A DNA stretch of 62,014 bases, the filler included, from Sanchytrium tribonematis (lineage: Eukaryota): assembly GCA_018985235.1 (NCBI GenBank). It is 7 parts of 7 records of this genome, joined end to end, with 100 filler letters (N's around TTAATTAATTAA, not from the genome) between each part and the next. Parts side by side here need not be neighbours in the genome. Positions count along the whole stretch, not along the records: positions 11,381 to 16,951 come from JADGIG010000595.1; positions 17,052 to 22,575 come from JADGIG010000597.1; positions 22,676 to 50,777 come from JADGIG010000058.1; positions 50,878 to 56,400 come from JADGIG010000598.1; positions 56,501 to 62,014 come from JADGIG010000599.1; 2 more parts are not named here. One strand, 5' to 3'. Of this stretch, positions 11,381 through 62,014 are shown one piece after another. Every line of letters begins with the position of its first letter. Within the stretch, counting starts at the first letter, position 1. The notes below the pieces were generated by a model. It saw only the letters and a list, made by a program, of their open reading frames with translations, had not been told where the DNA came from and did not search any database. The translations under genes were made by a program, and so were the position numbers.

Positions 11381-13843
11381 TGACACAAATATTCTGCTTC
11401 TTCCAAATTATGAGTGGTTAAAATGACAGTAGATGTCTTTTTCATTTCTTCAATCATTGTCCAAATACATCTACGCACCTAAATAAATCAAAAAAACTTC
11501 TGGATCCAATCCCGTCGTTGGTTCATCTAAAAAGATTAAAGATGGATTATTCACATTTGCCATACTAATAGACACTCTTCTCTTCTCTCCTCCACTTAAT
11601 TTATTAGGGAATCGCTTTTGAAATCCATTCAATTGAGCGTGTAATAAAGCAGCATCTGCTTGCGATTTTGCTGTTTTCAATTCTAACCCCTTTAAAATAC
11701 CAAAAAAGATCAAATGTTCAATCACAGATAGATCTGGAATGAAAATATCATGTTGCGCACAAATACCAATCATTTTATGGATCTCATCAATTTGTGAATT
11801 TAAATCATATTGACCCAATTTACCAAAATAGGTGGCACTGCCATGTGTTGGCTCTAATAATCCTGTTAATATGGAAATCAAGGTGCTTTTACCAGCCCCA
11901 TTGGATCCCAATAATCCAAATACGGTATTCTTTTCAACTGAAACTGTCACATCTTTTACAGCCACTTTATGGCCAAATTGCTTTCTTAAATGGTGACATA
12001 CCAATGCAGGTGAGTCATATTTACCCGCATCTACATTATTACGCATATCCACGACATCCTGATCTTCAATTTGTGATTCATGCTTCACATCTTTATCTTG
12101 AAATTGCGAATACACTTTTCCACCATGGACTGTCTTTTTACCCATTAATTCTAATACTTTGTGATACACATAGCCAATTGGGAAGAAAATATTCTTTCTA
12201 GTACCAAATTCACTCTTGATGATTAATGAGAAATAAATGGCCAAAATCAAATAAACAATCCAAGTTAAAAAGAGTGCTAGCATCGCATACCCTACAGAAT
12301 TAGGGAGGTTTAATTGTTGAAATCCATATGGATATTTGGTGGAATCTGTGGCTGCTTCATTAATTAAAATGAGAGCTTTAAAAAATGCATATGGGCCATA
12401 AACAAATAGAGCATCTGGGATACCGAGTGATGGAATACCAGTTAATTGACCTAGTACGACATTACCAAGTGTCAAAATAGCAGTGAATATGGTTGCACTT
12501 CTAGCTTTGTTGAAAAAGGCAGAAATTAAAAAACTGAGTGAAATTTGACTTAATCCCCATAAAATAAATAATACGGCAATGACGCCAAAATTAGTACGCA
12601 TAATAAAATGGATACCCCATATGGCACTAGTGATTAAAAAGACAATGGCACTGCAAATGTAAATTAAGAAATTTTGACAAAATAACACGAAAAAGTATTT
12701 CATTTCACTCACTCCATTCATTTTCAATAAAATGAAGATTCTTTCTTCTTTCTCTTTAACTAAAGAATGTACGAATACAGGCAATAGAAATGAGAAACAA
12801 AGAGGAAGGAAAAATGAGATGATTTGACCTGAAAAATCAAATTTTCCATTTTGATAGTCACTTTGTGGCATTGTTCTGAATCCACCACCAATAATCCAAT
12901 CACTGGTCTGTTTAATTATTGCATTAGACACCATATTGATGTAATAACCCGCATTATAAAAATCAACTGTGGTTTCCCTCCCCATGACTGCATTTGCATA
13001 ATCACCAATTTGAATAGTCACAGCATCATCAGTCGCACTAATTGCATATTGAGGAAAAATACCAGGTCTACCTCTATAAAAATAACCACCTTGCTTTGAA
13101 AAGTAGAATTGCTCATCTTTTAATTTCTTGACAAGTGCTGTTTTTAACGCACTAGGGCTATCATATGATTCTACCGTCGTAGCTAGTTCACAGTTCTTGC
13201 TATTACATTTGAAATAATTGGTTAAAGATCCCAACAAACCAGTTCCAAACTTGGAGTAAATCACAGAATTATTTTGATTGTAGCCCTGAGTAAAGTTATT
13301 GACCATCAATGAAGCTGGAATAGAGTCATTTCTTGTTCTTTGTCCCCATTTACTACTAAATGTACCAATAACACTCACATTATTCCCATAAATCGTTTCT
13401 GGCGTGTAATTTCCATTTGGTCCAAAATACATACTGCCCATATCTCCCCAATATTGCCATGAACTAGGTTGATATTGCTGGTCATACTGCTCAGTATCTT
13501 GTACCTGTAATTCCAATTCTGCAGGGTGAATTGGCGCGTAGAATCGATTACAGTTGTAATTAAATAGCTGGTTTGGACTCTTTATAGCAGTCTGATTCAT
13601 TCTCACACAACTGTAAGCAGTGAATGGCTTAAAATTAGCAATACTAATCGCCAATAACATCTGAATCAACCCACAAATACAAACCAACAAAATTGGACAT
13701 AAAAACACACATATCAAATTAGACCATTTCTGTCTCTTTTGCGTATTGAATGACTTGTAAAACAAAGCTTGTATCACAGTATCTTTCTTTTTCATCATCA
13801 TTTCTGTTTTCGGACTTTCAAACGCTTCTCGGTGGCTTGGCAT
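11381..13843 (-). CDS. ABCA-subfamily ABC transporter (3' truncated; intron 11479-11497)
   Basis: LVKEKEE, Walker A GSNGAGKST, signature LSGGEKRR and Walker B LIFLDEPTTGLDPE. Splicing restores DPE|VRRCIW...ILTTHNLEEAEYLC. Confidence 0.92.
11479..11497 (-). other. 19-nt spliceosomal intron (GTTTTTTTGATTTATTTAG)
   Basis: Removal restores the ABCA D-loop to H-loop continuity (LDPE-VRRCIW...TTH). Confidence 0.93.
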
Positions 13844-13860
13844 TTTAAAAATGTTGATTT

Positions 13861-13900
13861 TTTAAACGTGATTTAAAAACGTGCTATTTAAAACGTGATT
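13861..13900. repeat. Three tandem TTTAAA(A)(A)CGTG units in the 57-bp gap upstream of the ABCA gene
   Basis: tttaaacgtga / tttaaaaacgtgc / tttaaaacgtga read directly from the sequence. Confidence 0.75.
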
Positions 13901-15152: not shown

Positions 15153-15641
15153 TCATCGCTTAAACAGTGGATCTCTGCAAATTGGGCAAGTGCCATGTGA
15201 TCCAATATTAGAGTTGTACCATTTTGTAATGCAATGTCTATGGAATTCGTGGCTACAATCTGTTTTGACTATGAGTTCCATTGTTGGCAGCTTTTCATGA
15301 CAAATTCCACATTCTGACTCATTTGGAGTGGTTATGTAAGTATCGTCAATGTAAATTTTCGTATTTCTAGTGGGAGATGCATTTCTAACAGCGTTTGACT
15401 GCATTTGAGTGACAATTGGTTTTTGAGTTTGTCGGATTCTTGCTGTAACTTCTGTTTTGTTGGTCTCGGCGTGATTTGATCTATGCTTTTGTATTCCAAA
15501 ACCAAGTGAAAGGAATATAGTACACCCACCAAGAATGATAAGTGTCAAATTATGATAAAGACTGCCCAAAATAACCAAAATAGTCCCCACAACAATTCCA
15601 TCGTACCATCTTGGTGTTCTACAATATCTAGACATAGTCAC
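15153..15641 (-). CDS. Two-TM RING-H2 E3 ubiquitin ligase-like protein
   Basis: CGICHE...CSHEFHRHCITKW...CPICR; two N-terminal hydrophobic segments. Confidence 0.85.
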   Translation of the reverse strand: MTMSRYCRTPRWYDGIVVGTILVILGSLYHNLTLIILGGCTIFLSLGFGIQKHRSNHAETNKTEVTARIRQTQKPIVTQMQSNAVRNASPTRNTKIYIDDTYITTPNESECGICHEKLPTMELIVKTDCSHEFHRHCITKWYNSNIGSHGTCPICRDPLFKR

Positions 15642-15760
15642 GATAATTTAAAGTGGTTCTCTCGACTTTAAATATTTAGAAATGGCTTTTGTGAGCCAAT
15701 GAAATGGATATATTTTAGCCATTTTCGCGCTAGTCATCTCAAATTGAAAGTATAAATTAT

Positions 15761-16225
15761 TTATTTACTAAACAATGGATCTCTACACAGAGGACAAGTC
15801 AAATCAAACCCATATTTGTGTGAATGCCAACTTTTTAAGCACGATTTATGAAATTCATGATTGCAATCCGTTTTTATAATAATTTCGCTAGATTTCATTT
15901 CTTCACAACAAATACAACATTCTAATTCACTAGGAATCGTAATGTAGCTCTCATCAATGGTAAATATGGATTTAACAGACTGTTGATCCATTGCAGAATC
16001 TGCATTTTCCATTTCTTGCATATAAGTTTGTCTAACTCGTCTAATTCTCTCAATTTCTTGTTGGTGCTTCCTCATATTAAACTTGAATTTGATTGTAAGG
16101 AATAATACAACTAGAGCTGCACCTATTATCAGCACAATGTAGTTGTGTGTGAAAGCGGCATGAATTAAAAGTATTGTAATTAGTGTTGAAACAATTTGAA
16201 TTGTTGAATATTTTTGATCTGTCAT
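15761..16225 (-). CDS. Two-TM RING-H2 E3 ligase-like protein, tandem paralog of 15153-15641
   Basis: CCICCE...CNHEFHKSCLKSW...CPLCRDPLF; shares IDxxYIT and KTDC blocks with its neighbour. Confidence 0.85.
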   Translation of the reverse strand: MTDQKYSTIQIVSTLITILLIHAAFTHNYIVLIIGAALVVLFLTIKFKFNMRKHQQEIERIRRVRQTYMQEMENADSAMDQQSVKSIFTIDESYITIPSELECCICCEEMKSSEIIIKTDCNHEFHKSCLKSWHSHKYGFDLTCPLCRDPLFSK

Positions 16226-16951
16226 GAATCAAATAATGAGCAATTCGTATTTGATGTCATCGCATCAAGAATTGCCAATCATTGTAACCCAATCAAAATC
16301 CACCAACTCAGAATCGTTAGAGAAACAGGGAGAGTTCGTATTCTGTATTAAAAATACCTCCTCAATATTATTTGACTATTGTCTAGTCATTTGAAAGTGT
16401 ATTTTCATTCGATGGTTTCTTCAAAATGATCAAAAAGTATGATTTGAGTCTGATTTTTGGAATTATAAATCTAGAAAGTTCCCAAAAATCAAGAGGGAAT
16501 TATTTTCAGTATCAATCAATTATACAGCACCAGCCTATAGTTGTGAATCGCAAGAAACTATTATAGCCCTTGCTTTGAAGCTCAAAGTTTATACATCTGG
16601 CTTGCATTGGTTGGTCTGGAGATGTGATGAAACATTACTTTCAAGTTTCTTCAAAGTGACCAAATCCTAATTGAAATCATTATCATATTTACACTAATAC
16701 ACTAGATTCACGTCATATACACCACACTAGTCTCCATTAGACTGCATATTTTCAAATTTGAGATTTACTCTAAACTTCAGAATATTTCACTTCAATTTTA
16801 AAATTCCCTGGATTTACCCCATGAATCACCGTGATTGAAACTCCTAGCGCATTCAATTGTTTTAATCCTACTACCCACTCAAAGTGTCTCTCACGGGTCT
16901 GATTTTCCTGAGTCTCTGTATCTGATTGGACTCTCAGTCTCCCTTGTTAAA

Positions 16952-19616: not shown

Positions 19617-22412
19617 ATGTCAAAGGCCAATCCTGTTCCTGCAAATGCAAAACTCCAGATCTTGTTAAACAGAGTTTTGGAAAAAGACTTCAAGGCGGAT
19701 ATGGAGGTAGAGGCATTTGCTAGCCAATCTACTGTAGAGGAATTATTTGTTGCATACAAGCAAGTGGATCAAAGGGTGAAAAAATCATCCAAAGAATTGG
19801 AAAGATATTATTACAACAATTATTATTCCTTCATAGAATCCGCAAAGGAGCAAATTGACATCACTAAACTTCTAGAGCAAGTAAATACCAAATTGGCCAG
19901 TCAATATATTCCATTGTTAGAAGAAATCAATTCTTCCTTTGAAGGTATTCGAGATCAGCTTGCTGATGAGCTGATGAGATACGAACAAATGAAGAAGTAT
20001 TCAGTTGCCAAGAAGCAATCTGGTTGGGTTGTTGATCTATTTGTGAATTTGGAGAAATCATATCATCGTATAAAAGGCTTAACTCCTTTGCAGCCGAAAC
20101 ATCAGGGCTTCAAGGAAATTAATTATAAAGTATACGGATATATCATCAGATGCGCATACCACATTAAGAATTATTTTCTTTTGCAAGGATATCCAAAGCA
20201 AAGTGAAGCCATTTTAGCAATTGTTGAAAAATGCAAGACGGTGCTGCCAAGGATCGCAAGTTTATTCGAAAATTTACTCAAGAACGCTTGTAGTTATTCA
20301 GGAAGCTGGGCCCTTGAATACCCCATTCTTTTAGTTATTCATTGTTTTTTAGTGAAATTAAATATCGAGTCAAACATCAACGTTCTGGTTGAAGAAAAAT
20401 TTGCCGTTATATTCAATGCTTATAAAGAACAGTTTAAGGGATTAATTTCGACTGATATCAAGGAAACTATCAATATTAATACAACGGAAATGTTTTTAAA
20501 AATGAGAAATCTCATTATGAGAGACATAAATTTAATGGTATTAACTTCAAATTGTCTCACGACTAATAATGCAGAGCCTTTAAATTGCGATTCCTCTAAC
20601 ATTAAGATTATTTTTAATCATTTGACACAAATTCGATTAATTTTAGAACCACCACAATGTTTAAGTGTTGGGTTGTTGTTTTCGGAAATCTTTGAAAATT
20701 TTCTGGAGGAAGACAATCAATTGATTAGACTCACTGCTCAACTTTATACTGATTTGATTAGATATAGTTTAAGAAAAGATTTTTTGGGAGAAAACTTTAA
20801 CGCGAGCAAGTTGATTCATCTTTTAAGAAATTTAAAGGCCGAATGCCACGAGGCGGCCTCTTTTCCTTTTGAATTCCTTCTAGCTACAGATCGAAACTCA
20901 CCCATGAAAGTTGATGAAAACGTGGTCAATTTTGTTTTGAAAAATGAATCTACAATTCATTCTACAAACTTTAAGTACACCCAAGTCTTTTTTCACCGAA
21001 TTGGGAACAATTTGCTTAGCATAGTAGTGCGAGAGGCTGTCAAATGTTCAATACTTGAGGTCAACGTTAAGTTGAGAGACTCTCTAAAGGAATGCATGAA
21101 AGTAATTGGACCTCTGGCTTCCTCAAAGACGATCGCGAATGGGTTGTTAGACACGGAAAAAGTTTTGGAAAGAACTTTAAATGAGACTGTTAGAAAGCAA
21201 CTGAAAAAGTTACGCAAGTCGTTAAACGAATCAAACCTTTGGTTTCCTGGTCAAAGCGAAAATTTTATTTTCCAAGAATCGATAATTTCTGAACTGCAAA
21301 ATTTTTGGAAGCAAATTGGAAATATGAAGCTCGACGATCCAAATTCGGAACTTCTGCTAAGTAGAATATGTTTCGACTCAGATATGCATATTATCGATAG
21401 CTGCTTCTCGAAGTTCTTGCCATTGGTAGCTGACAAATTTGAAGGGAGCTTATCTCCGGACGTGGTGGCGCAATTTAAAGAAAACGACTTTGATGAAGAG
21501 AATGATGATAGCTCCCCGTCACTTTCTATGGAAAGACTCGGACTTTACAACACTTTAAATTTAGGTGTAGGAGAGTTGCGAGAAATTGTCAGGGATCGAG
21601 CAAAATACAAGCTCGGAAATTATATTCTTTACCATGCGCTAGAATTGAGTAAGAAAATGGATGGCTTTTTGGAAGATTTGGACATCGGTAGAGAGCGCAA
21701 ATCTATTGAAAAATATATTGTTTCCCCTCAACTCTGTACTTGCATTACCTACATTATGGCAATAGAAAAATTTGCAAGCGTTATTTTTGACGAAATGGCC
21801 CGTGAAGACTTATACGCAAAACGGCCACCAGTTCAAAAGAAATCTCACGCCAAAAAATATTCTTTGGACGATAGGTTCAGCGACCGAGAGAGCATGTCAA
21901 GTACAATGTCTCCCACTAAAAATGACTCCAAATCAGTAGTCAGCTCAAATCATGTTCTCAATGCTCCAAAAATGAACAATTCTTACATGAGCCATGTACA
22001 CAAACTTTTTCGCAAGCATGTAGATTTTTTCCCACAATTACCTAGCCTTTTGATACAAAATGACTTGAAAGTTAGAGTTGATTTCACAAAAGAAGCAGTT
22101 ATAGAGCATTTATTATTAGTTATTATTAAACATTTAACTGAGGGATTAAAAAATAGAGTTACAATCTTCCATAGAAATTCGTTGACCCCAATACAATACG
22201 AACAGATCTACATTGATATAGAGTATTTGAAAATGATTATAAGACTCTCCGCAACCAAATTGGAGAGCTCGGTCCTAGATGATAAATTCCTTATGATACT
22301 GCTTGATGAGGCTAGATCATATGCCTTTCAATTGTGTTTATCTCCTAGATCACCAGATACAAAGCTACTTAATCAACTGTTAGAAGAAGAAAGGGTGAAA
22401 TTAGCTAAATAA
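19617..22412 (+). CDS. VPS51: Vps51/Ang2-like GARP tethering subunit
   Basis: N-terminal YYNNYYSFI resembles the Vps51 VYENYNKFI motif. C-terminal HKLFRKHVDFF...VDFTKEAVI...QIYIDIEYL resembles the Vps51 C-terminus. Confidence 0.62.
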   Translation: MSKANPVPANAKLQILLNRVLEKDFKADMEVEAFASQSTVEELFVAYKQVDQRVKKSSKELERYYYNNYYSFIESAKEQIDITKLLEQVNTKLASQYIPLLEEINSSFEGIRDQLADELMRYEQMKKYSVAKKQSGWVVDLFVNLEKSYHRIKGLTPLQPKHQGFKEINYKVYGYIIRCAYHIKNYFLLQGYPKQSEAILAIVEKCKTVLPRIASLFENLLKNACSYSGSWALEYPILLVIHCFLVKLNIESNINVLVEEKFAVIFNAYKEQFKGLISTDIKETININTTEMFLKMRNLIMRDINLMVLTSNCLTTNNAEPLNCDSSNIKIIFNHLTQIRLILEPPQCLSVGLLFSEIFENFLEEDNQLIRLTAQLYTDLIRYSLRKDFLGENFNASKLIHLLRNLKAECHEAASFPFEFLLATDRNSPMKVDENVVNFVLKNESTIHSTNFKYTQVFFHRIGNNLLSIVVREAVKCSILEVNVKLRDSLKECMKVIGPLASSKTIANGLLDTEKVLERTLNETVRKQLKKLRKSLNESNLWFPGQSENFIFQESIISELQNFWKQIGNMKLDDPNSELLLSRICFDSDMHIIDSCFSKFLPLVADKFEGSLSPDVVAQFKENDFDEENDDSSPSLSMERLGLYNTLNLGVGELREIVRDRAKYKLGNYILYHALELSKKMDGFLEDLDIGRERKSIEKYIVSPQLCTCITYIMAIEKFASVIFDEMAREDLYAKRPPVQKKSHAKKYSLDDRFSDRESMSSTMSPTKNDSKSVVSSNHVLNAPKMNNSYMSHVHKLFRKHVDFFPQLPSLLIQNDLKVRVDFTKEAVIEHLLLVIIKHLTEGLKNRVTIFHRNSLTPIQYEQIYIDIEYLKMIIRLSATKLESSVLDDKFLMILLDEARSYAFQLCLSPRSPDTKLLNQLLEEERVKLAK

Positions 22413-22744: not shown

Positions 22745-23251
22745 ATGGACAACACCGCAGTGCATACCACTACAAATTTTTGTGACGCTGCAACCCAATG
22801 CGAAATATTGAAAGTGTCTTGGATGCGTAAACTTATTAATTCAACCAAAAGACAAGTGCGAATGATTATGAAAAAGAAAAGGGTGAATAATTTAAATGTT
22901 GTGAAAGAAGCCCAAAAAGAAAAAAGTCAAGCAAAAAATTATAATGCTTGTAACTCGACTTTACCCACTATCCCTGAATTTCCTGAGGGCTTGTTGGAGG
23001 TGAAATTAGTTACCCCCGTCTGCAAATTAGCACCACCTACTATCACCAAGTGCCATAATGTCAAGCAACCAGACCGACTTATAAATGAGATAAAAAATTT
23101 CCAAGCAAGTAAGTTGAAAAGCGTGAAATTATTGAATTCTTATGCCAATCGACATGCGGAACTAGATGTACTCAAGCGTAAACTACAAACCATTCGAAAT
23201 AGATCTTGCACAACCAACTCTTCTGCTTCTGAATCCAGTGACTGGATTTAA
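22745..23251 (+). CDS. Hypothetical protein with a WH2-like motif
   Basis: DRLINEIKNFQASKLKSV resembles the WH2 helix plus LKxV; acidic/Trp C-terminus (SESSDWI). Confidence 0.5.
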   Translation: MDNTAVHTTTNFCDAATQCEILKVSWMRKLINSTKRQVRMIMKKKRVNNLNVVKEAQKEKSQAKNYNACNSTLPTIPEFPEGLLEVKLVTPVCKLAPPTITKCHNVKQPDRLINEIKNFQASKLKSVKLLNSYANRHAELDVLKRKLQTIRNRSCTTNSSASESSDWI

Positions 23252-23287: not shown

Positions 23288-24730
23288 TTAAAAAGTAAGC
23301 TGCTGTTTGTTTTCCTCTAATTGCTTTCTCATTTCGTGCTTCTTGTGGACACGAATATGATTGTTGAGGTTATCTGATCTTGTAAATGCTTTGCCACATC
23401 CCGGAATAGGACAACTGAATGGCTTTTCACCAGTGTGAATTCTTTCATGACGCTTTAAATGCTCGAATCTCTTGAATCGTTTTCCACATCCATCCCATTT
23501 GCATTCATACTGACGGTCTTCATCATAGGAAGGTGCTTTAAGTTGATATGGATTAGTCAATGAAGTATGGTAATGGACAGAAGGTGGTAGAGGAGGCATA
23601 TATAGATATTGTTCATAAGACTGGCCGTATTGTTGATTATGCTGGTGCTGATGTTGATGTGGGTGGAAATCTGGAAGAGGTGGGGACTGGAATCCCTGAT
23701 AATTGTGATTCAAAATAGAGTCATATTCATGAGGCTGATGTGCTTGTAGTAACGGGTCAGATGCAAATGGCTGAAAGTGGGTTGGTGGAGGTAAAGCCAT
23801 ACTGTCTGATAAGTCAAAATTGCCCATATCATCTCTCAAAATTGGCGGATAATGAGCCATTTGCTCTTCCAAAAAATTCTTAGTGAAATGAAATTGATTG
23901 GAATCCTGTTCCGCAACACTAATCTGTTCGTTTTTGCTATCATTTAGTTCTTGTTGGACGGATGGAGTCTTAGAGACCTGCTGATCACCTGAGGCTTGTT
24001 CAACTTGATCATCTTGCTCCAAAACTGCTTCCTTTACTTCTTCTGGCTTATTGCTTTGTTGATCAGCAGATAACGCCTTGTTTGGTGTCTCATTCAACAT
24101 GTATGGATCGTTCAAGACATCCTCATTGATACCTGATACATCTTCAATAGCTTTCAAAGCTGGTGTATTCTCAACAGAAACGGGAGGCGTATTATCTTGA
24201 AGTGGTTGTGGCTGATTCAACATTTCAGTCAAAATCTGACCAGGAGGTGGTTTGACAGTAATTGTGGTTGGAGGGACCCCTAAAGCTTCACGCTTTAAAT
24301 CTCTTTCTAATGCATCAACAAATAGTCTATCGTGTTCAACAGAATACCAATAGAATACCTTTTGCTTCTTTTGAGTTCTAATGCAATTATTTTTGTACAA
24401 TAGTTCCAAGAAATCACTTCTAGGTTCTTCAAGAGTAGCATCTGTGCCGCTTTTTAAATTTCTTAAATCACTAAAGACTCCTTCTTCAAACTTTTTCAGA
24501 TTGCGGACAGGTCTGCCATAGGCCTGAAATCGATAGAGCAAAACTCGGATAATATCCGTTCCAGTTATGTGAAAAATGTTGTTCCAAAATACACAGCTCA
24601 CATATTCCCCATTAGGCAGAAGGTGTCTTCTCATGGTTTCATTGCTATTCCAGTTTAAGGGGGCCGTTCCTAGAAAGTATCGTAATCTCTCCACGGACTC
24701 CTGAATTCCGTTGTCCAAAGTTATAGTCAT
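23288..24730 (-). CDS. STE12: Ste12/SteA transcription factor with two C2H2 zinc fingers
   Basis: STE domain ([41 protein letters not shown]) and C-terminal [19 protein letters not shown] fingers. Confidence 0.95.
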
Positions 24731-30993: not shown

Positions 30994-31945
30994 TTATTTC
31001 AGATTGTCGAATGAAGTCCCTCTGGAATTCAAACGGTCCATTTGAATTTCATCTTGCTGCAACTGGTATTGTGCTTTGCTTGTGTTTTGATCATTTATAA
31101 CATAAACCCCAATAAAGGATATTATAAACCCAATAAAAACTCCTATAACGTCTTTGTCATTCGCATTTTCCATTCCTTGAAATAAAATGACGTTAGCAAC
31201 AATGGTAAGTGTTGTAAATCCGCAATAATATATTGGGGTGACCACGTTGGATGCAAATTCGTCTAACGCCTTATTAAAATAACTCATTTGGGTGCTGATA
31301 CACATAATCATTGTTAATAAAAAAGCCCAAGTGCTGGGATAAACTAGTTGATTAGAACCCATTAAAGTCAGTCGAATAGCAATTCCAAAGGCCTTGCAAG
31401 CTATGACTGTTATTGACCCAATAGAAGAGCAAATCCCAAGATAAATAAACAGCCTATTTTTTCCAATATGTTCTACCTTGTAGATTAAATAGTAGGTCAA
31501 AAATAAGACAGAACCAAGATAAGTTAGAAAACCAGGTTTCACGGCCTTGTCTAACATCTCATCAACAGAATCTATTTTTGCCTCTTCTGGAGAATTCAAG
31601 ATGACCAATACAGCACCCAGGAGACAAAGAACAACGCCGGTCCAGCCTATTCTTGTCATATTTTCTTTCAATATTAAGTAAGCCAATATATTGCCAAAAA
31701 CAACTGAAAGCGCACCCAATGGCGTTACCGTTATAGCGCTCGCAAAAGAGTACGCCACGAAATTTAAAACTTCACCCGCTCCCATGGTGGCCATGCCCAG
31801 CCCTATGTGAAATATATTTACAGTAGGTTTTGGATTGCAGGTAATTTGGGCTACCGAGCCCTCTTTTGGTAATAATAAAGGATGAGCCTATCAGTATGCT
31901 AGAGCTGATTGCAAGTGTTAAACCAATTATTTTCGACTCTGACAT
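30994..31945 (-). CDS. NIPA-family Mg2+ transporter, intron 31803-31821
   Basis: Exon 1 IIGLTLAISSSILIGSSFIITKRGL; spliced YWLGMATMGAGEVLNFVAYSFA...VTPLGALSV. Confidence 0.93.
31803..31821 (-). other. 19-nt spliceosomal intron (GTAAATATATTTCACATAG)
   Basis: Phase-1 intron splitting a conserved Trp codon (T|GG). Confidence 0.94.
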
Positions 31946-49104: not shown

Positions 49105-50728
49105 TTATTCTGCCAAGAAGTAAGAATGTGCATCCACTAAGTTAGATAACTCGTGAATCTTTTCGAGACCACCAGGTATAGAATATAAATCTTTCGGGAA
49201 ATCCGGTTCAGATTTTGGAAGTGCCTAAATAAAAACGTATTACGAAATCAGTATCGAATAAGGAATGTGCGGACATTATCAAATGTGCAGTCAAATGATT
49301 GACTATCAGTGTTCGAAGATAGTCATCAGACAAAAACGGCTGTATATTAGATACAAATGATGCTTCTGTTGATTTAAAATCTAGCATTGCCAGGGTAATA
49401 ATTTGCTTCAGATCATCGATTCCTTTGACGACAAGACTTAGAACGTCCTCGTTGCAGTTTAGCGCATCAGACACGTGTAAAAAGCCAAGATTAGGTGAAG
49501 TGACAAAAAGCGTGTATAAACTTCCATACGTTACGTAATTTTCAAATTTCAAAGGTATGTCAGAAGGGCTTTGTAAAATTAATAACGGCATGTTATGAAA
49601 GTTTGGAAGATTGAATTTCCTATTTCCAGGCGAATCTATCATAAGAATCAATGGCTTTCTGGTAAAAGGTAACAGATCTAATGGATATAAAGCATTTGTT
49701 TCTATAGAATCTCTATCTTGAGTAGATCCAGCCGTGTCAATGCAGCTCAAACCTACATTGTAAAACGACCCGAATGCATTTAGCGCATTATCTTGAGTCT
49801 GTAGCTTTTGTGAAAAAGCATCTGAAGAAATATATACAAATAAAGTCGAGCTTGCCTGTTTAAATGCACCTGATAAAAATGTAGATAAACTAGAAAATGA
49901 GGGTCTGTAGAGCAGATATTTTTTGGGAAACGAAGGATTTGCAACAGAACTAGCACTAGAATTGCTTTTGTTCACTTCCAAAACCTGCAATATTCGATAC
50001 ATGTCAATCGTTAATTCGCTACATTTGATTTGAGATAAGTGACCTCCAATGATTAGGGATTCACCAAGAACGAGTCCTTTAGAAGGCGGATTCGATGCTG
50101 GTAGACGAAGGGAATCTATTGCTTTTGCTTGAGGGTTAGAATTCATGAGACAATGAGTAAATGCTGTAATTTCCTGCAGAACAAGATGCCACTCTTTGGC
50201 GTCATCTGATTGGAACGTATCTGAATACTGATCTATAAGCACTCTTAATTCATTATACAATTCAGTGGTCAGTTTCAAATCATTACACAACAAGCAAACA
50301 ATACAATATCTACAGTAGTATCGAAGTTTCTTCACTACCAGTGTAGGATTTTTGAGCTCAAAGAGGTTGTTAAAATATTGTCTGTCCCGAATAGCATCAT
50401 AAAATACCTTCGATTCGTATAAATATGTAGTATCAGAGGTCCTTAAATAATAATGATAATATAGCTGGCCAATTTTAGATGCTATTTCTCCAATTTCGTA
50501 TCTCTTTAGTTGGTATTCGTCATTTAAAAGTTGTCGATGCACTTGCTGAAATCTCCAAAGCCTTGAAAAAAGCTCAAATGTTTTTTGAAAATACGATTGC
50601 CACTGCTTATTCGTGCTTAATGGGCTTAGATCTCGTAACTGATTGAACAATTGATGAGATTTTTCGAGCATGTAGGTAAACTCGGAAACTATTTCGTTGC
50701 TGGCTTCCTTTGAATTTTCCTTCGACAT
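49105..50728 (-). CDS. SCAI: SCAI-family protein, intron 49225-49243
   Basis: LWRFQQVHR, LKRYEIGEIASKIGQLYYHYYLRTS, KKLRYY, KYLLYRP and LYPLDLLPFTRKPL motifs. Confidence 0.9.
49225..49243 (-). other. 19-nt spliceosomal intron (GTAATACGTTTTTATTTAG)
   Basis: Adds a 39-aa terminal exon (ALPKSEPDFP...) that fills otherwise unexplained space; matches the intron consensus. Confidence 0.85.
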
Positions 50729-51126: not shown

Positions 51127-53139
51127 ATGACTACGATACATCTGCCTCTTAAGAGTGATCATGATGTCCGTCCTTTGTTTATATGTCCAAATACCCACCA
51201 AATTTACTTAGAAGCCTTCTCGCCATTGGCACAGCAAACCATGGATTTTTTAATTGCAATTTCGGAACCCATCTCTCGACCTAAATTTATTCATGAATAC
51301 AAAATGACTGAACAAAGCTTAAATGCTGCTGTTAGTGTAGGACTTCAGGCGCAAGATATTTTAACTTTTTTAGAAAGGCTAAGCAAGACAACTCTGCCAC
51401 AAGATTTAATTGATTTTGTAAATGACAAAACCGAGTCATTTGGAAAAGTGAAACTTGTTCTTAAAGAAAACAGAATTTTCGTAGAAACCACCGATGCCAA
51501 AACTCTGCAACTCTTGCTGAAAGATGCTGTGATTAAAGCAGCCAGAACATATGAAAAATTCGAAATGGAAGATGACGAAGAAAGTGACGAGGATTTTATT
51601 CAGTCTTTCGAGATAAAAGGTGATCAGGTTGAAACTATTAAAAAACATTGTAAGGATATAGGCTTTCCGATGCTTGAGGAGTATGACTTTAGAAACGATA
51701 AATCTAACAAGCCACTAAATATTGATTTAAAACCAACCACTCAAATTAGGCCTTATCAAGAAAAATGTTTATCTAAAATGTTTGGAAATGGAAGAGCTAG
51801 ATCTGGCATTATTGTGCTGCCTTGTGGGGCTGGAAAAACATTAGTTGGTATTACCGCTGCTACTACAATTAAGAAAAACACATTGGTTTTGTGCACTTCT
51901 TCAGTCAGCGTCAACCAATGGAAACAGCAATTTTTACATTGGGCAAATGTCAACGATAGTCAAATAGCTGGATTTACTGCTGATTCTAAAGAATATTTTG
52001 TGACCGAAACCGGAATCGTCGTCAGCACTTATTCAATGGTCGCCAACTCCAGAAAAAGAGCATTTGATACCCAAATTGTGATGAGCAAACTCGAAAATGT
52101 CGAATGGGGGCTTGTGATTCTAGATGAAGTCCACGTTGTCCCTGCAAACATATTTAGAAAGGTTATAACGACTATTAAGGCTCACACAAAACTGGGTTTA
52201 ACTGCAACTCTCGTCCGAGAAGATGAAAAGATCGATGATTTGTCTTTTCTTATTGGCCCAAAATTATATGAAGCAAATTGGCAGGATTTAGCTAACCAGG
52301 GACACATTGCAAGAGTTCAGTGTGCAGAAGTCTGGTGTGATATGACTCCCGAATTTTATTATGAGTACCTTCGCGCTCAAAAGTCTAGGAAGCCTCTTTA
52401 TTACATTATGAATCCTCGAAAATTTCAGATTTGTCAATATCTAATCAATTACCATGAAAATCGGGGCGATAAAATCATCGTTTTCAGTGATAATGTTTTT
52501 GCTTTAGAAGTTTACGCTAAAAAATTGAGAAAGTATTATATTTATGGTGGAACTGCTACAAGAGAAAGAGAAGAGGTTCTGAGCAGATTTAGAAACGACC
52601 CTACTTGCAACACTATATTTCTTAGTAAGGTTGGAGATACTTCAATTGATTTACCCGAAGCTACATGTCTAATCCAAATTTCTAGCCATTTTGGTAGCAG
52701 AAGGCAGGAAGCGCAAAGACTTGGAAGAATTTTAAGAGCAAAACGTAGAAGTGATGAAGGTTTCAATGCTTATTTTTATACGCTTGTAAGCAGGGACACC
52801 AATGAAATGTTTTATTCTCAGAAAAGACAGCAATTTTTAGTGGATCAGGGCTATGCATTCAAAGTTATTACTCATCTAGACGGAATAGATAGTGCCAATT
52901 TATTCTTTGATACTTCTCAAGAACAGAAGGAACTTTTGAAGCTTATTATTCTCGCCACAGAATCTGATATTTCCAAACAGGATACAATGCCAGAAATGGA
53001 CGAACTGACTGAAATTTCAAACTCTGCTATAATCAAAAAAGCGACTGCTGCAATGTCTACCCTGACTGGTGCCGAAGATATGACTTACCAGGAATACAAC
53101 AAACCTGTCAAGCAACCGAAGAAGAGAAAATTTAATTAG
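51127..53139 (+). CDS. SSL2: TFIIH helicase XPB/Ssl2
   Basis: [32 protein letters not shown] and [14 protein letters not shown] motifs. Confidence 0.97.
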
Positions 53140-53899: not shown

Positions 53900-55915
53900 T
53901 TATTTTCTGTTGTATATATAATCAGCAGCTTTAACTACTTGGCCCATTTCCTTGACATCATGAACTCGCACAAACTTACAGCCATTTTCAATACAGACTG
54001 TAACTACCGCAGCTGCACCCATAACTCGGTCCTTTGCCACAGGCTCACCGACCATATTTCCTATGAATGATTTGCGACTAGGACCCATAAGAACTGGAAA
54101 GGTCTTGAATAAATTTTTACAATATGGTAATTCTGAATGTGAAAAATCGCTGGGGTCGTCACAAGTAGCTTTTAGTTTAATTAAGTCAATATTTTGCTCT
54201 ATATTTTTAGCAAATCCTAATCCAGGATCGACAATGATGAGCCATCTCGGAATACCTTGCTGAAGTGCCATTCGTACCTTTTTGCTTAGTTCATGCTGCA
54301 CATCATTAACAGTATGAGAATAGTTTGTCAACTTGGTCATCGTCTCTGGAGTTCCCCGCATGTGCATCATAACAAAAGGAACCTTATACTTACGAATTAC
54401 GGAAAACATATTAGGATCCCTTCCAGCAGTAACGTCGTTTATCATGGAAGCCCCGTGAAGAATAGCCTGTTCAGCTACTTTAGATCTGTATGTATCTACA
54501 GATACAATGACATCATTAACATTTTTCAACACTGGAATCACTCTATCTAGTTCCTCATTTTCAGTGACTTCCACAGCTCCAGGCCGTGTGGATTGCCCTC
54601 CAATATCAATGATGTCCGCTCCTTGATTCTTCATTTCTAATATCCTGGATTGTGCTAGATCTGGGGAAGCGTATTCATTGCCGTCAGAAAAGCTGTCTGG
54701 AGTTACATTTAAAATGCCCATGATTCTAGTTTTATCAAAATTCCAAGTCTTATTATTAATTGGGACCACCCTATTACAAGTTGATTTAGATGACTGCAAA
54801 AGTAATTGAAGTAGTTTCTCCTGGCTCCGCTTTATTACAGGATGTACAAAATGAGGTGCAATATCGTTCATGGGTTGGAGAACAAATTCTCTTTCTTGAA
54901 TGCCTCTATGAGGTATGATTAAATCTTCTGATTCAAAAATGAGGTCATTGTAATAAATGATATCAATGTCAATTGGTCTTGGACCATTGACAATGTACTT
55001 TTCAAAACGTCCCATATTAGTTTCTATTGATTTCAGATATTTTAAAAGGTTTTTCGGTGCCAAAGACGTATTAATTTTGACTACACAGTTCAAGAAATTA
55101 GGCTGATCTGTTTTATACATGGGTAAACTTTCATACAAAAATGAAGAATCCAGTAGCGAGCATTCGGATTGCAAAAAATCCAAAGCTTTATGAATATTTT
55201 CTCTCGCATTTATATTGCTCCCGAGACTCAAAAACACAATGTTGGGAGAATCATGCGATGGTCTGATTTCTTTGTACCAGTCCAGTTGTCTAGTTGAAAT
55301 TACTCTAGCTGAATTTGCAAATCCGAATGCAAGAGGTTTATCAATTGTGATTTTAACCTGTCGAAACAAATGACAATCAAATACCGCCTGTAGCAAATGA
55401 ATGTTTAAAGCTTCAATCGTTTTAAACGATGCAATTTTGGCCCTATTTCTCACTTCTTTACAAATTAAACGATAATTGACTTTCGTTGGCCCTGATTTCA
55501 TTTCCAAATGAATCAAAATGGGCTGTAATGACAATCTTTCATGCGGATTGACACCGACAATCGTCTCGACTTGTAAAGCCCTAATACTGTAAATATACTC
55601 ATTCATTTTTTTCTCTAGTTTAATTGAACCCGTAAACAGAGCTCCTTTTGGTAGTTCGACTACTATTTCGCCTCCAAATTGACTTAAAAAATCAACCAGT
55701 GATTCAACATCATCAAATTCTGTGTCAATATTAGCGATTTGCTTTTGTAATTTTGTATAGTCCAAAGTGTGATGGATGTCATCTGATTTAGAAACTTTTT
55801 CGAAGTTATGCGAATTAGAAATTGTTATCATTATATCTTGTGGTTTCTTCCTTTCCCACAGATCTACGCCAACAATTAAAGGTACACGTAACTGATGTAC
55901 AACAATTTCATCCAT
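53900..55915 (-). CDS. FOL1: Trifunctional folate synthesis protein (DHNA x2, HPPK, DHPS)
   Basis: IVGV...ER DHNA repeats; LSLGSN, GPRPIDIDI and PHRGIQEREFVL (HPPK); MGILNVTPDSFSDG, DPGLGF, SRKSF and RVHDV (DHPS). Confidence 0.96.
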   Translation of the reverse strand: MDEIVVHQLRVPLIVGVDLWERKKPQDIMITISNSHNFEKVSKSDDIHHTLDYTKLQKQIANIDTEFDDVESLVDFLSQFGGEIVVELPKGALFTGSIKLEKKMNEYIYSIRALQVETIVGVNPHERLSLQPILIHLEMKSGPTKVNYRLICKEVRNRAKIASFKTIEALNIHLLQAVFDCHLFRQVKITIDKPLAFGFANSARVISTRQLDWYKEIRPSHDSPNIVFLSLGSNINARENIHKALDFLQSECSLLDSSFLYESLPMYKTDQPNFLNCVVKINTSLAPKNLLKYLKSIETNMGRFEKYIVNGPRPIDIDIIYYNDLIFESEDLIIPHRGIQEREFVLQPMNDIAPHFVHPVIKRSQEKLLQLLLQSSKSTCNRVVPINNKTWNFDKTRIMGILNVTPDSFSDGNEYASPDLAQSRILEMKNQGADIIDIGGQSTRPGAVEVTENEELDRVIPVLKNVNDVIVSVDTYRSKVAEQAILHGASMINDVTAGRDPNMFSVIRKYKVPFVMMHMRGTPETMTKLTNYSHTVNDVQHELSKKVRMALQQGIPRWLIIVDPGLGFAKNIEQNIDLIKLKATCDDPSDFSHSELPYCKNLFKTFPVLMGPSRKSFIGNMVGEPVAKDRVMGAAAVVTVCIENGCKFVRVHDVKEMGQVVKAADYIYNRK

Positions 55916-56919: not shown

Positions 56920-57287
56920 CTCCTTTGTCACGAAAATTTTAAAGATAAAATTGTTACGTTTTGTCTGTACGACATGGTTCCGCAAATGGATTTGGCGATT
57001 GAATTAGATTCCATTCATAAGCATTTGCTCACACTTGATACTGCAGAGTCCCGTGATCTTGTTCATGACCAAAAACAAGTTATATTAAATTTATTAGCGA
57101 CCTGCAATAAATTTGTAGCTAAAATTTAAATTTGGGAAATAAAAATATTAAATCTGATTCTTTAAAATTTGGATCAACCAAAACCTGCTGAATATCATTT
57201 TGGGACTTGAATTCACTCATGATTAAAATATTTTAGCAAAATATGGATAATTATGTCATGAGCAATCAGTCTCAATTTTCACCGGTA

Positions 57288-59717
57288 TTAATCCCACTGA
57301 GCATTTCCCAAGTTCTTTAAACGATCAAATTCTCTTTCCAATATAGCTGAATAATTAATCTCAATCTTAATAAATTCAGATGTAGATATCACTTGACTGG
57401 CCATTCCTCTTTTTTCAATTGTTTTCAACTCGACATCATCTTCGATAGAATTGCTGCATATAAAATAGTATACAAACACAGGCTTAGTTTGTCCAATTCT
57501 ATAGCATCTATCAACTGCTTGGTCGCAAACAAAAGGGTTGTACCACAAATCAGCAATGATGACAAAATTTGCACATGTCAAATTTAACCCTGTGCCTAAG
57601 CCCAAAGTGATGAGCATTATCTGGTAATTGTTGGAAGTACTCTTAAACAACTCAATCTGAGTAGCTCTTTCTTCTTTTGAAAGTTGACCATGTAGCATAA
57701 CAGTTTTATATCCTTTTTCGTTTAAATGATATTCATAGATATCAAGCATTGATTTCCATTGACTAAACAAAACACACTTGTTTTCACCAACATCTGTTCT
57801 GATAAGATTTAAAACTGATCTAACTTTTTCGCTATCAGGTAAATCCGACAAATCTACTGTTGATGCTTGAGAATTCCCATCTTCAAGATTGTTGTTATTT
57901 AAATCTTCAAATAAAAAGTCATCGGGAACATATTCTTCTGGCATTAAAAGGTGATCAGCTGGCTCCTTACAGCTGAGACAGCGTTTTTCGCCATCCAATT
58001 TGACAAATGAGCACTTCGTACAAAATATAGATTTGCAATAGTAACAAATGCAAGGTTCTGGATTGAACTCCCTACTACACTGCGGACAAAACCCGTTGCT
58101 ATTTAAGTCAAGAAAAAATATAAGCGCGTTTTTGTAATTTGAAATCCAAAGCTCATCACTTGTAGGAATCGGCTGTTGGAAGATCTTAATTAAAGTGCAA
58201 ACCCTATCTTTGTTTGACAAGGTATAATGATTACAGCATTGTCTTAATCTGAGTGCTAGTAGCAACATCCAGCCATGATTTTTATAAAAATTAATCTTAT
58301 TCTTTAAATCCAAATATGATGTTAGAATTTCCTTATATGTTTTTAATTCGTTTCCTGAAAGACTAATTCTATTTGTAACAATCGTTTTTGGCGGCAAAGC
58401 GACAATTGGTTTACCATCAATAAGTGTTTCTTTGGTTCGTCTTAAAATATAGCATTGGGAAAACAAATTGCATTTTTGGGGAGAAATAATTTCATTTACG
58501 CCAATGTGATTTTTAAAATTATCTGCATTTTCGAGATAATGCGCTCGAATAAATGTGGTTAAAGCTCTTAAATCGGAAAGGTAATTGTTGATAGGCGTGC
58601 CTGTCAAGGCAATATAGCAATCTGCCTGAATTTTACTTACAGATTCAAAATATGATTTTCCAGCATTTCTGATTTTGTGTGCCTCATCTAAAATGCATCT
58701 CCTGAAATTCCATTGGCTAAAATATTGCGGTCTTTGTTGCACTCTTTCATATGTTGTTATCACCACATCTCGATGCTCTAAACTAGGATTAAATTTCGCG
58801 GATTCACCATATAAAACCATGTAACTCAAAGAATTAGGCATACAGTGCTCATCAATTTGCTCGCTCCAATTATCTATTAATGTTTTGGGACACACAATTA
58901 ACGTTGGACCCGATTTGTACCAATTAGGATTCGTTTCTTTATCTTTTAGAATAAGAGCAATTGTTTGGATAGTTTTCCCAAGACCCATATCATCTGCTAC
59001 AATCATTGATTGAGTAAAATTGGGAGATGTTGTTGCTTTCCTAGTTAACACATTAATATAAGTATCATCGTCTATTTTCTTGTAGAATTGCATAATTCTT
59101 GAAGGATCTGCATCTAAAGCAGCTTTGGGATTCTCACAATCGAACATCCAAGCCAGTGCTTGCTGTTGATGAGGCAAAAGTTTTGATTTTAAATTTAGTG
59201 GAGAAGGCTCTTTTCTATATTTATGAGCATAATCATTGTCCACCTTAAACTCTTTCCAAAATTTGTCAAAGTCGAAATGTACTTTCTTAATTTTTTTGCG
59301 GATTCCACGTTCGGAATTTTCTGGATATTCTTCTTCGCTTTGAGATAGTTTTATTCCGAGTTTCTCTAGCTTTGCTTTTTGCTTGTCTGCTCCATATATT
59401 TGCAACTCAATATCAATATAGTGATTATGCACAAATCCTTTCAAATATGCTTTACAACTGATTTTTGGGTCATCCTTCATAAGCTCTCCCACTAATCTTA
59501 TATACTTATCCTCCAATTGGCCGACTTTTTCCTCGACAAAACATTCAGGTTTTTTCTTTGTAGCTTTAAATTTTCTCATGTAATAAACACTTGGGTATAT
59601 TTCGTCATTCAAGTACTCTAATCTAAGAACAACTTCACAGTTCCGTGTAAAGTTGCTTTTACAAGTTCCTAGAAAAACTTTTGTGTAGTTTTTACCGAGA
59701 AATGATTTACTTGTCAT
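57288..59717 (-). CDS. Rad5/HLTF-like SNF2 ATPase with RING finger
   Basis: ADDMGLGKT, TLIVCP, ILDEAH, LTGTPINN, LRLRQCCNH, RING-like Cys cluster and QAVDRCYRIGQ. Confidence 0.9.
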   Translation of the reverse strand: MTSKSFLGKNYTKVFLGTCKSNFTRNCEVVLRLEYLNDEIYPSVYYMRKFKATKKKPECFVEEKVGQLEDKYIRLVGELMKDDPKISCKAYLKGFVHNHYIDIELQIYGADKQKAKLEKLGIKLSQSEEEYPENSERGIRKKIKKVHFDFDKFWKEFKVDNDYAHKYRKEPSPLNLKSKLLPHQQQALAWMFDCENPKAALDADPSRIMQFYKKIDDDTYINVLTRKATTSPNFTQSMIVADDMGLGKTIQTIALILKDKETNPNWYKSGPTLIVCPKTLIDNWSEQIDEHCMPNSLSYMVLYGESAKFNPSLEHRDVVITTYERVQQRPQYFSQWNFRRCILDEAHKIRNAGKSYFESVSKIQADCYIALTGTPINNYLSDLRALTTFIRAHYLENADNFKNHIGVNEIISPQKCNLFSQCYILRRTKETLIDGKPIVALPPKTIVTNRISLSGNELKTYKEILTSYLDLKNKINFYKNHGWMLLLALRLRQCCNHYTLSNKDRVCTLIKIFQQPIPTSDELWISNYKNALIFFLDLNSNGFCPQCSREFNPEPCICYYCKSIFCTKCSFVKLDGEKRCLSCKEPADHLLMPEEYVPDDFLFEDLNNNNLEDGNSQASTVDLSDLPDSEKVRSVLNLIRTDVGENKCVLFSQWKSMLDIYEYHLNEKGYKTVMLHGQLSKEERATQIELFKSTSNNYQIMLITLGLGTGLNLTCANFVIIADLWYNPFVCDQAVDRCYRIGQTKPVFVYYFICSNSIEDDVELKTIEKRGMASQVISTSEFIKIEINYSAILEREFDRLKNLGNAQWD

Positions 59718-59760
59718 AAAGTAAAAGGAGAATTATATTTTTAATTATAAATCACTATAT

Positions 59761-61321
59761 TTATTTCTGAATTGCTGTCAAGGTGTCAAGATAGCCGACG
59801 GCGACATCTTTGACAACCGACCTATCCGGAATAGTTGCTACTAGTCCATACCTAAGTTAACTGAAATTACATGGCGGCACTTCCTCCTTTGATTCCCTTT
59901 TTACCAGTCTTCTTAAAGTCATTTACGGCTACTTCTAGATCTCTGATAAACTGATCGCCATTAGTTAGATGTGTGCATGCAAAATGTAAAGCATTTGGAT
60001 TCTGCAAAGGGTTGAGGTGCCAACCTTTCGATTTTATAAAATCATTTAACACAAATACATCGTAGCCAGGCATCGAAAATGCAAAGACAGACGTTACTGG
60101 AACTCCAATCAATTCTAGGTCTGGATTTTTTTCTATATAACGTACTATTTTTTGCGTGTTAGTGGCAATTTTATCTATTGCTTCAGTATATCCTCTATTT
60201 CCCAACGAAAGCATTGCTGCCCAACAGCCTGCAATCAATGAGCCAGGTCTTGAGCCTCCAAGTAAGGGTGTAGCATATACACCACCAACCCAGTCTGTAG
60301 TAATATAATATTGATACTTTCTCAAATTTTCATTTTTATACATTATAACTGATGACCCTTTAGGGGCCAAACCGTACTTGTGGGTATCGCAAGAAATCGA
60401 CGTAACTCCTGGTAATCTAAAATCGAATGTAGGGATGGGGTAACCAAGTTTTTCCATGAATGGCAACATAAAAGAGCCCAGGCAGCAATCTACATGGAAG
60501 TAAATATTTTTCTTTAGCGCCAATTCATTCAAAGCATGTATATCGTCCATTGTACCGTAAGGCCAATTGACCGCACTTCCGACGACTAAAATGGTATTTC
60601 TATTCATTGCTTTCTTCACAAGATCTATTCGAACTTGCCCATTTTTGTCACATTCAATTTCAACAAATTTCAAATTAAAATAGTGACAACTTTTTGCGAA
60701 TGCTGCATGGGCTGAAGCTGGCACAATCATCTCAGGATTATTTATTCCTCTAGCTTTGGCAATATCGCGGTAAGCTTTCCCGGCTAGAAGGATACTTTCA
60801 GTGCCACCACTTGTCACACTTCCGCAACCAGTAGAAGAACCATGAAATAAATTTAATACCATGCTAACAATTTCAGATTCCATTTGTCGAACACTCTTAA
60901 ATATTTCTGGATGTAACGGATTAGAGCTATATAAAACTGACATAGCCATTTGAGCGTTATCCATTACATTTTTAATATTGTGGTAAATTGCTCCACTCAT
61001 CAAACCTGTTGTGTAATCTTCGTCATGAGAAATATATTCTTGAAGTCTTTTTTTGATTGAAGCATAATCCATTGGGTCTTCTGGCAATTGATAAATGGGT
61101 TTAATTGGTAGTATAAGATCCTTTCTCAACTCTGTTATGGCTTCAGTAACGGACTTTTTGACCGGATTATTAGGTAACAATTTGATCGATGAAATAAAAA
61201 TTCTAGCAATAGAAGTAAATATTTTTTTAATTATTCCTATCGGACCGTTTTTATAAATTTGGTATAGTAAACATAGTGCTCCATAAATTTGTAAGCCTTG
61301 TAATGCTTTGGCTTGATTCAT
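59761..61321 (-). CDS. DPL1: Sphingosine-1-phosphate lyase, intron 59852-59870
   Basis: SGAIYH, SNPLHP, TSGGTESI, HVDCCLG and SCDTHKYG motifs; splicing restores AAMYG...IPDRSVV. Confidence 0.95.
59852..59870 (-). other. 19-nt spliceosomal intron (GTAATTTCAGTTAACTTAG)
   Basis: Phase-2 intron (AT|G) restoring the conserved C-terminal YG...IPDRS motif. Confidence 0.94.
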
Positions 61322-61371
61322 TAGGTTTCAAGACCTCCCCAATAAATTGTTCTTGTTTGAAAATCTCAGAT

Positions 61372-62014
61372 TTATTTATACTCTGGAATCGAGCAAGCGT
61401 TTTCAGTGAAGTGAGGAACGTGTTTTTTGTCGTAAAAAGAAATAACTTGTTTGGACTTTTTCACGATATTAGCAGTGGTGAAACCAAACTTTTTGTAAAC
61501 ATCCGCTTGCGGTCCAGATGCTCCGAAAGTTGTCATACCATGAGTGGCATTAGCATATCTCTCCCATCCAAGTGGACTACTAGCTTCCACGGATAACACT
61601 GGCACACCAATAGGGAACACACTTGTCTTGTATTCCTTTGATTGCTTTTCAAATAACTCCCAAGATGGAAACGAGACTACCCTGGCGCTGCCCAACTCTT
61701 TTGCGGCATCCATAGCAATTGATACTTCTGTTCCAGTTGCGGCAATAACAATCTTCGGTTCTGCTACATCATGTGCGACATATGCGCCTTTAAGGGCTTT
61801 TTCAATTGAGGAAGTAGGTACTCCAGCAACCGAGTGTCTAGAAAAGCAAAGAACAGTAGGCCCTTGATGTTCCAACGCTGCAATATAACCAGCGCTTGTT
61901 TCGTTTCCATCTGCAGGTCTTACAACTAAAACATTTGGAGTCGATCTGATCAAAGGCAAAATTTCAATAGGTTGATGCGTGGGTCCCTTAGTTAATAAAA
62001 AATACGTCTTCTCC
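61372..62014 (-). CDS. TKL1: Transketolase, 3' part; intron 61987-62005
   Basis: GED|GPTHQPIE after splicing; RPADGNE, KGAYV, ATGTEV, RVVSFPSWELF and FGASGP motifs. Confidence 0.95.
   Translation of the reverse strand, partial: EKTYFLLTKGPTHQPIEILPLIRSTPNVLVVRPADGNETSAGYIAALEHQGPTVLCFSRHSVAGVPTSSIEKALKGAYVAHDVAEPKIVIAATGTEVSIAMDAAKELGSARVVSFPSWELFEKQSKEYKTSVFPIGVPVLSVEASSPLGWERYANATHGMTTFGASGPQADVYKKFGFTTANIVKKSKQVISFYDKKHVPHFTENACSIPEYK
61987..62005 (-). other. 19-nt spliceosomal intron (GTATTTTTTATTAACTAAG)
   Basis: Interrupts the highly conserved transketolase motif GEDGPTHQP. Confidence 0.96.

Follow-up and report, generated by a model that had tools for sequence, protein, structure and literature searches.

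Nine segments of 19 nucleotides in Sanchytrium tribonematis DNA are likely introns and likely the shortest found so far in fungi

Introns of about 15–23 nucleotides (nt) have been described in several eukaryotic lineages. Those of the heterotrich ciliate Stentor coeruleus measure 15–16 nt, with the branch A at position 10 or 11 and a 5-nt tail (PMC9505925), and in Blepharisma 79% of the introns are 15 nt and 10.5% are 16 nt long (PMC13685798). Mikrocytos introns are 16 nt long in 217/224 cases and 17 nt in the other 7, and a model of a size floor combined with deletion bias has been proposed for them (PMC10245619). Introns of chlorarachniophyte nucleomorphs span 18–21 nt, and up to 23 nt (PMC6461891), those of Encephalitozoon cuniculi 22–76 nt (PMC3629993), and those of myxobolids and Dicyema have medians of 22–27 nt (PMC13644364). 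We describe nine 19-nt segments in a 62,014-nt stretch of DNA (assembly GCA_018985235.1) from Sanchytrium tribonematis, a fungus that parasitizes algae; the stretch is referred to as the window. These are segments which on sequence evidence are likely to be genuine introns and the shortest yet found in fungi.

The window consists of seven contigs joined by spacers. It is gene-dense, with about 35% G+C, the standard genetic code and around 42 gene spans, nine of which carry such a segment. The nine segments, each of 19 nt, are the following:

11479–11497, minus strand: ABCA transporter intron, phase 0, immediately downstream of the Walker B/D-loop; putative branch A at 11484
25035–25053, minus strand: septin (Cdc12/Spn4-like) intron, phase 0; putative branch A at 25040
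28953–28971, plus strand: RasGEF-domain intron, phase 0; putative branch A at 28966; retention would introduce an in-frame stop
30633–30651, plus strand: cyclic-nucleotide phosphodiesterase (PDE) intron, phase 0; putative branch A at 30646; retention would introduce an in-frame stop
31803–31821, minus strand: NIPA magnesium transporter intron, phase 1; putative branch A at 31808; the sole 5'-located one
36472–36490, plus strand: intron of a secreted Kre9/KNH-like Ig-domain protein, phase 1; putative branch A at 36485
49225–49243, minus strand: SCAI intron, phase 0; putative branch A at 49230
59852–59870, minus strand: sphingosine-1-phosphate (S1P) lyase DPL1 intron, phase 2; putative branch A at 59857; retention would lead to an immediate stop
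61987–62005, minus strand: transketolase (TKL) intron, phase 0; putative branch A at 61992; the acceptor is AAG; retention would introduce an in-frame stop

A preliminary description had reported nine GT..AG segments of exactly 19 nt on three contigs, and all nine were recovered at these coordinates on the strand of the gene, on three of the seven contigs of the window. The donor reads GTA in 8/9 segments, ABCA having the sole GTT, and the acceptor is TAG in 8/9. Six segments are in phase 0, two in phase 1 and one in phase 2. In every case, taking the segment out connects the longest open frame on its upstream side with the longest one downstream. When the segment is retained, a stop is found within it in four genes and 8–28 codons further on in the remaining five; because 19 equals 3n + 1, a retained intron would always end in a premature stop.

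Homologues pin the predicted 19-nt junction in septin, ABCA, RasGEF and SCAI. The spacing between the W and ERD motifs of septins is six residues in 114/115 homologues, and a 19-nt splice gives six residues where a 16-nt splice gives seven. In ABCA, the DP-to-W spacing is six residues in 101/116 homologues, matching the 19-nt splice; the other 15 did not match the pattern, and none has another spacing. The PF00617 profile reaches position 48 at the last upstream residue of RasGEF (a weak match, E 0.039) and restarts at position 50 at the second downstream residue, with all alternative splices removing at least 55 nt; a PDB search with the upstream piece gave no match. A profile built from 15 homologues of SCAI gives the 19-nt form 512.9 bits, whereas three other splices and the unspliced form reach 481.7–493.7 bits. 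The putative TKL and DPL1 junctions are supported from the downstream side. The downstream exon of TKL aligns from its first residue onward to yeast transketolase residue 478, and the 19-nt segment is the sole GT..AG option within the three upstream codons that the window contains. The 29-residue downstream exon of DPL1 has the C-terminus of S1P lyase as its sole PDB match (8cmx, E 0.027), and alternative splices remove at least 40 nt.

The interior of the segments contains two invariant columns, an A at position 14 and a T at position 12 (9/9 each), and a pyrimidine at position 15 in 8/9. A14 sits 5 nt before the 3' end, within a T-n-A-y motif at positions 12–15 that agrees with the canonical branch consensus y-U-n-A-y. 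A column made up entirely of A occurred with a frequency of 7.5e-5 among 200,000 shuffles of the interiors, and its combination with an all-T column two positions upstream never occurred in these shuffles. The other 19-nt GT..AG segments of the window have an A at position 14 in 97/324 cases. Scored by a leave-one-out procedure, the nine segments reach 9.6–17.2, and a score of at least 9.6 is attained by 3/324 of the other segments. A14, as part of a motif that could pair with U2, is predicted to be the branch point. The data do not demonstrate the ruler-like, length-defined splicing proposed in the preliminary description, and the introns carry a branch-like signal that this description had not noted. 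Given this signal, the fixed length may be just a minimal distance from the 5' site to the branch plus a fixed distance from the branch to the AG.

The length of 19 nt, found in 9/9 segments and in the 3/3 protein tails of relatives that could be decoded (see below), falls within the range of the smallest introns described. Tiny introns of spliceosomal type in a fungal lineage, as anticipated in the preliminary description, are supported. Their length lies below the 22–76 nt of Encephalitozoon (PMC3629993) and in the size class of heterotrichs, mikrocytids and nucleomorphs (PMC10245619). The segments share with heterotrich introns the GTA donor, an AT-rich body, an invariant A at five bases from the 3' end, a predominance of single-intron genes and an excess of phase 0 (6/9 here). 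Heterotrich introns differ in being 15–16 nt long, mainly 3n and located in a ciliate, as opposed to 19 nt, 3n + 1 and a fungus. Compared with Stentor, this length would correspond to a lariat loop of 14 instead of 10–11 nt, that is 3–4 nt longer, with the same 5-nt tail. Mikrocytos mackini and Paramikrocytos resemble the present case in being parasites with a reduced genome, a near-single 3n + 1 length, a conserved intron sequence and mostly one intron per gene. Their introns have 16–17 nt, and those described here are 3 nt longer. Mikrocytos is without introns in metabolic and transporter genes, in contrast to the segments in transketolase, DPL1, NIPA and ABCA, and its 224 introns genome-wide compare with nine in about 42 genes. 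Splicing in Mikrocytos has been demonstrated with RNA, whereas the sanchytrid introns are predicted here from DNA.

Chlorarachniophyte nucleomorph introns occupy the same size range but have several lengths, no clear donor motif and a density of about 3 introns/kb (PMC6461891), and the introns described here would belong to a fungal host nucleus. Encephalitozoon, myxobolids and Dicyema share GT-AG ends, a reduced donor and a parasitic lifestyle with this organism, whose introns are shorter, of one length, and far more numerous per gene than those of microsporidia. The branch-like A is fixed in the nine segments, whereas in myxobolids the branch A drifts away from the AG as introns lengthen (PMC13644364).

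The lineage of the window organism was examined with XPB, septin and ABCA. Three to four close relatives were found for each, one of them from EukProt and the others from ENA/Logan. Beyond these, the top named matches are Blastocladiomycota for all three proteins. The EukProt sisters of septin and ABCA carry the name Amoeboradix gromovi in that source, with 84% identity for septin and 49% for ABCA. In a quick septin tree (27 rows, no outgroup), the window protein and its four relatives form a clade with 100% support in the Shimodaira–Hasegawa-like approximate likelihood ratio test (SH-aLRT), whose long branch joins the tree between Blastocladiomycota and the remaining fungi; the ABCA tree has weak support and places the clade elsewhere, beside another long branch. 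A scan of Joint Genome Institute (JGI) metagenomes with the septin returned five loci of GC-rich fungi at 28–39% identity and no sanchytrid. The close relatives and the septin tree identify the organism as a sanchytrid that is close to but distinct from A. gromovi, in agreement with Sanchytriomycota, a long-branch fungal clade that includes A. gromovi and stands next to Blastocladiomycota. The independent origin put forward in the preliminary description is likely, on the basis of this placement.

The proteins of the relatives were called without an intron model, so that their reading runs into the introns. The septin sequence breaks at the same codon, a Val (GT), in 4/4 close relatives, at identities down to 67%, which together with the window makes five genomes. 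Two septin tails, P0131 (A. gromovi) and P0132, decode only as a 19-nt intron among lengths of 8–27 nt, as do 3/228 random tails. The SCAI relative P0374 breaks at the same site as the window gene, and its tail, too, is compatible with no testable length other than 19 nt; among random tails, 11/1500 behave in this way, and 3/1500 when the A is required. Tail codon 5 is Asn or a stop in 5/5 tails of sufficient length, which is compatible with A14. The tails of P0129, P0130, P0249 and P0250 end inside the intron and give no length readout.

These data also bear on a non-spliceosomal nature of the segments, which could be assembly errors, pseudogene indels, elements excised at the DNA level, or sites of ribosomal frameshifting or bypass. 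Such an explanation would suit segments known here from DNA, and 19 nt, being six codons plus one, would suit a +1 shift. Contigs re-assembled from run X1 cross 7/9 sites without a gap or joint (ABCA and SCAI lie outside the comparison) and argue against assembly error; they are not an independent sample, since the window may itself derive from X1. The homologues of septin, ABCA and RasGEF have no room for six extra residues, and the septin position is the same in five genomes. In-frame stops inside 4/9 segments, together with a GT, an AG and the branch-like motif in 9/9, likewise speak for introns. Pairwise differences amount to 4–9 of the 19 positions (mean 6.4, conserved ends counted), indicating that the segments are not a recent repeat family, and no family of near-identical intron copies, of the kind that characterizes introner elements, is present among the nine. 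A non-spliceosomal origin is consequently considered highly improbable.

The alternative X1 contigs show clustered substitutions and small indels that suggest heterozygosity, mixed strains or repeats. The variants are found in the following stretches, and none of them falls inside the seven introns covered:

22837–23198: X1 variant zone
23924–24143: X1 variant zone
34897–34967: X1 variant zone
57169–61743: X1 variant zone

The nine segments are likely ordinary major-spliceosome introns, reduced in length to the minimum that the spliceosome of this lineage would accept. We consider it probable that they are U2-type introns at this minimal size, with a donor, a branch A at position 14 and an AG five bases later. 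U1 and U6 would read the short GTA donor at about positions 1–6, and U2 would pair with the T-n-A-y motif, at about positions 9–15, bulging A14. A 14-nt lariat loop would form, and the AG five bases past the branch A would be joined, giving 14 + 5 = 19. The canonical U6–donor and U2–branch helices known from the spliceosome structure would span about positions 1–6 and 9–15. About two bases would remain free between them, which suggests a steric floor. Uniformity of length would come about if sterics set a lower limit to the spacing of donor and branch, if the spacing of branch and AG were constant, and if deletion bias in this compact genome of a parasite pushed all introns to the floor, as proposed for Mikrocytos (PMC10245619). 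A second GT, which would give 16 nt, is present in two introns, and the rejection of the 16-nt option by septin homology is what a size floor predicts.

A dedicated ruler, in which the branch A and the AG are picked by counting from the donor and only 19-nt introns can be spliced, overlaps with this model except on the cause of uniformity. It is in keeping with the constant 19 nt of the nine segments and the three decodable tails, with a branch-like A whose distance to either end is the same in all nine, and with the lack of any 20-nt case in this set, a length that a simple floor would permit and that would likewise shift the frame. The ruler predicts that no 20-nt class exists, and nine cases cannot tell: the tiny-intron lineages described keep a minor second length, and a class of 5% could easily be missed. 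Moreover, the existing branch sequence signal makes counting unnecessary. A size floor with deletion bias accounts for the data as well as a dedicated ruler does, and we regard the ruler as doubtful.

The claim that every intron has this fixed length holds for the nine segments. Beyond them, 0/9 introns of other lengths corresponds to a 95% upper bound of 28% for such introns, and the single length peak refers to these 62 kb. A wider distribution with 19 nt as its mode, in which longer or 3n introns had been missed by a reading based on frame breaks, would be compatible with this small sample. A gene parser that was trained on codon use only and treated all lengths of 12–150 nt as equally likely made 6/21 of its calls at 19 nt with a strict penalty and 7/48 with a medium one, and at any other length at most one and two calls, respectively; the peak at 19 nt exceeds chance. 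The 15 and 41 introns offered at other lengths could favor a wider distribution; judged collectively by eye, they resembled fusions across spacers or frames on the shadow strand. One 19-nt call, 34314–34332, is false, as it would fuse OSCP and TMEM128, each a complete gene. A length-neutral matrix of the intron ends, applied to lengths of 13–40 nt except 19, gave three sense matches, not above the antisense background of seven (its seven matches at 19 nt follow from the choice of threshold). None of the three scans shows a second length peak, and XPB, septin and ABCA have no unexplained insertion relative to their homologues.

Among in-frame segments that could be hidden introns, four were rejected as coding: septin 25149–25166 and ABCA 12031–12042, which are no insertions relative to homologues, SCAI 49569–49586, and DPL1 59909–59926, where the alignment with yeast Dpl1 is gapless through residue 470. 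Six in-frame motif matches of 18–27 nt remain candidates and are in line with a wider distribution:

55453–55470: in FOL1
58185–58202: in SNF2
40253–40276: in eIF2B
22119–22142: in-frame candidate
33118–33138: in an RRM gene
32386–32412: in an RRM gene

Taken with the scans, a wider distribution appears quite unlikely. Missed 5' introns were also sought, and the seven candidates with an upstream Met were rejected, having a top score of 1.4 compared with 9.6–17.2 for the nine. Two further 19-nt segments were discarded, 41101–41119 (score 10.2), which is without A14 and overlaps a natural stop, and 59180–59198 (score 10.1), which is antisense. The segment 6755–6773 (minus strand) is a 19-nt GT..AG sequence with A14 and a score of 14.9, at the level of the nine, but lies in no clear gene (15 + 10 codons); it is possibly an intron of an untranslated region or a small RNA, or a chance match.

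Several points weigh against introns of a single minimal size. Just nine introns were sampled, from 62 kb, which allows 28% of other lengths at the 95% bound. The initial selection favored introns that break the frame, and stop-free in-frame introns of 18, 21, 24 or 27 nt would hide in open reading frames (ORFs). The nine sites themselves served as training set for the weight-matrix scans, and the decoding of tails leaves room for introns of at least 28 nt with an internal stop. Three junctions are not pinned by homology. Both halves of PDE match PF00233, and the homology is compatible with a 16-nt alternative donor as well as with 19 nt. Both halves of NIPA match PF05653, with alternatives of at least 37 nt, and the junction is not fixed to the residue. 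In the secreted protein, 474 and 137 open codons are joined and the segment fits the consensus, among many alternative GT..AG pairs; self-comparison of this protein revealed no internal repeat that could pin the junction. Splicing and branch use are deduced from DNA and protein sequences. Finally, the position of the ABCA break differs between the window, A. gromovi P0250 and P0249, giving three codons that are all Val (GT) and all lie within 18 nt, and the relative P0251 is unbroken. This shift, unlike the conserved septin and SCAI sites, is left unexplained by the minimal-size model; intron relocation, repeated gain and hidden paralogy are candidate causes.

A bolder proposal would extend to the whole phylum Sanchytriomycota a single-length, donor-counting spliceosome for 19-nt introns that are 3'-biased and relocate by a few codons. 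We consider it unlikely, yet if counting were phylum-wide, the group would offer a model among fungi in which to study both a hard-wired ruler of splicing and the relocation of introns.

Eight of the nine introns fall in the final third of the coding sequence, at a mean relative position of 0.74. The skew differs from a uniform distribution with p of about 0.005, a post hoc value for which the lengths of ABCA and TKL were borrowed from homologues. The usual bias in intron-poor genomes is toward the 5' end, opposite to that seen here. A precedent for 3' enrichment is provided by the introns of Fabrea salina (PMC13685798).

The preliminary description also suggested that the introns had been missed by annotation, attributing this to gene predictors with a minimum intron size of 20 nt or more. 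They are indeed absent from the public proteins. The cause lies elsewhere, since the sanchytrid proteomes were called by TransDecoder on genomic contigs, that is, with no intron model (PMC8371127). Unspliced or split forms of 8/9 genes looked up are present in EukProt, RasGEF as two pieces; the lookup found no unspliced form of SCAI. Among ten intact proteins of the window for which a lookup was made, eight are singletons from EukProt. Prp8 and cactin of A. gromovi are annotated in the supplement of PMC8371127 (Prp8 in file 4). An Rfam search of the window gave no match.

No report of sanchytrid introns was found in the literature searched, a scope that mostly left out subscription papers. The word "intron" occurs in PMC8371127 in one reference title of the main text and in one unrelated annotation of the searched supplements, and sanchytrid introns are unmentioned in the available parts of PMC10459994 and PMC8476143. 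The 19-nt introns are therefore apparently unreported so far. They would add one more independent origin of introns that are both ultra-short and uniform, the first in true fungi within the literature searched, and would be the shortest opisthokont introns among the published ones found (Encephalitozoon, 22 nt; myxobolids, median 22 nt). Together with that of Stentor (10–11 + 5), their predicted geometry (14 + 5) would provide a second case for studying the lower size limit of a spliceosomal lariat, here in the fungi, whose spliceosome is structurally well known. Public proteins are truncated or split at the introns, and if about one-fifth of sanchytrid genes were affected, inferences on gene content and domain loss would need re-annotation.

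Other features of the window were noted. XPB (51127–53136) has about 670 residues in the window and in four close relatives, versus about 760–900 in most other fungi listed, and contains no intron; its short length suggests that proteins have become shorter in this lineage. A 718-codon ORF at 7106–9262 (plus strand) has no Pfam match and may resemble the proteins of Crypton-like tyrosine-recombinase transposons. The Pfam-less ORFs at 2031–2735 (plus strand), 5651–6097 (minus strand) and 9712–10854 (minus strand) display by eye common motifs and hydrophobic N-termini, and perhaps form a lineage-specific secreted family. Small membrane-anchored RING-H2 ligase genes are arranged in tandem at 15153–15647 and 15761–16228 (minus strand).

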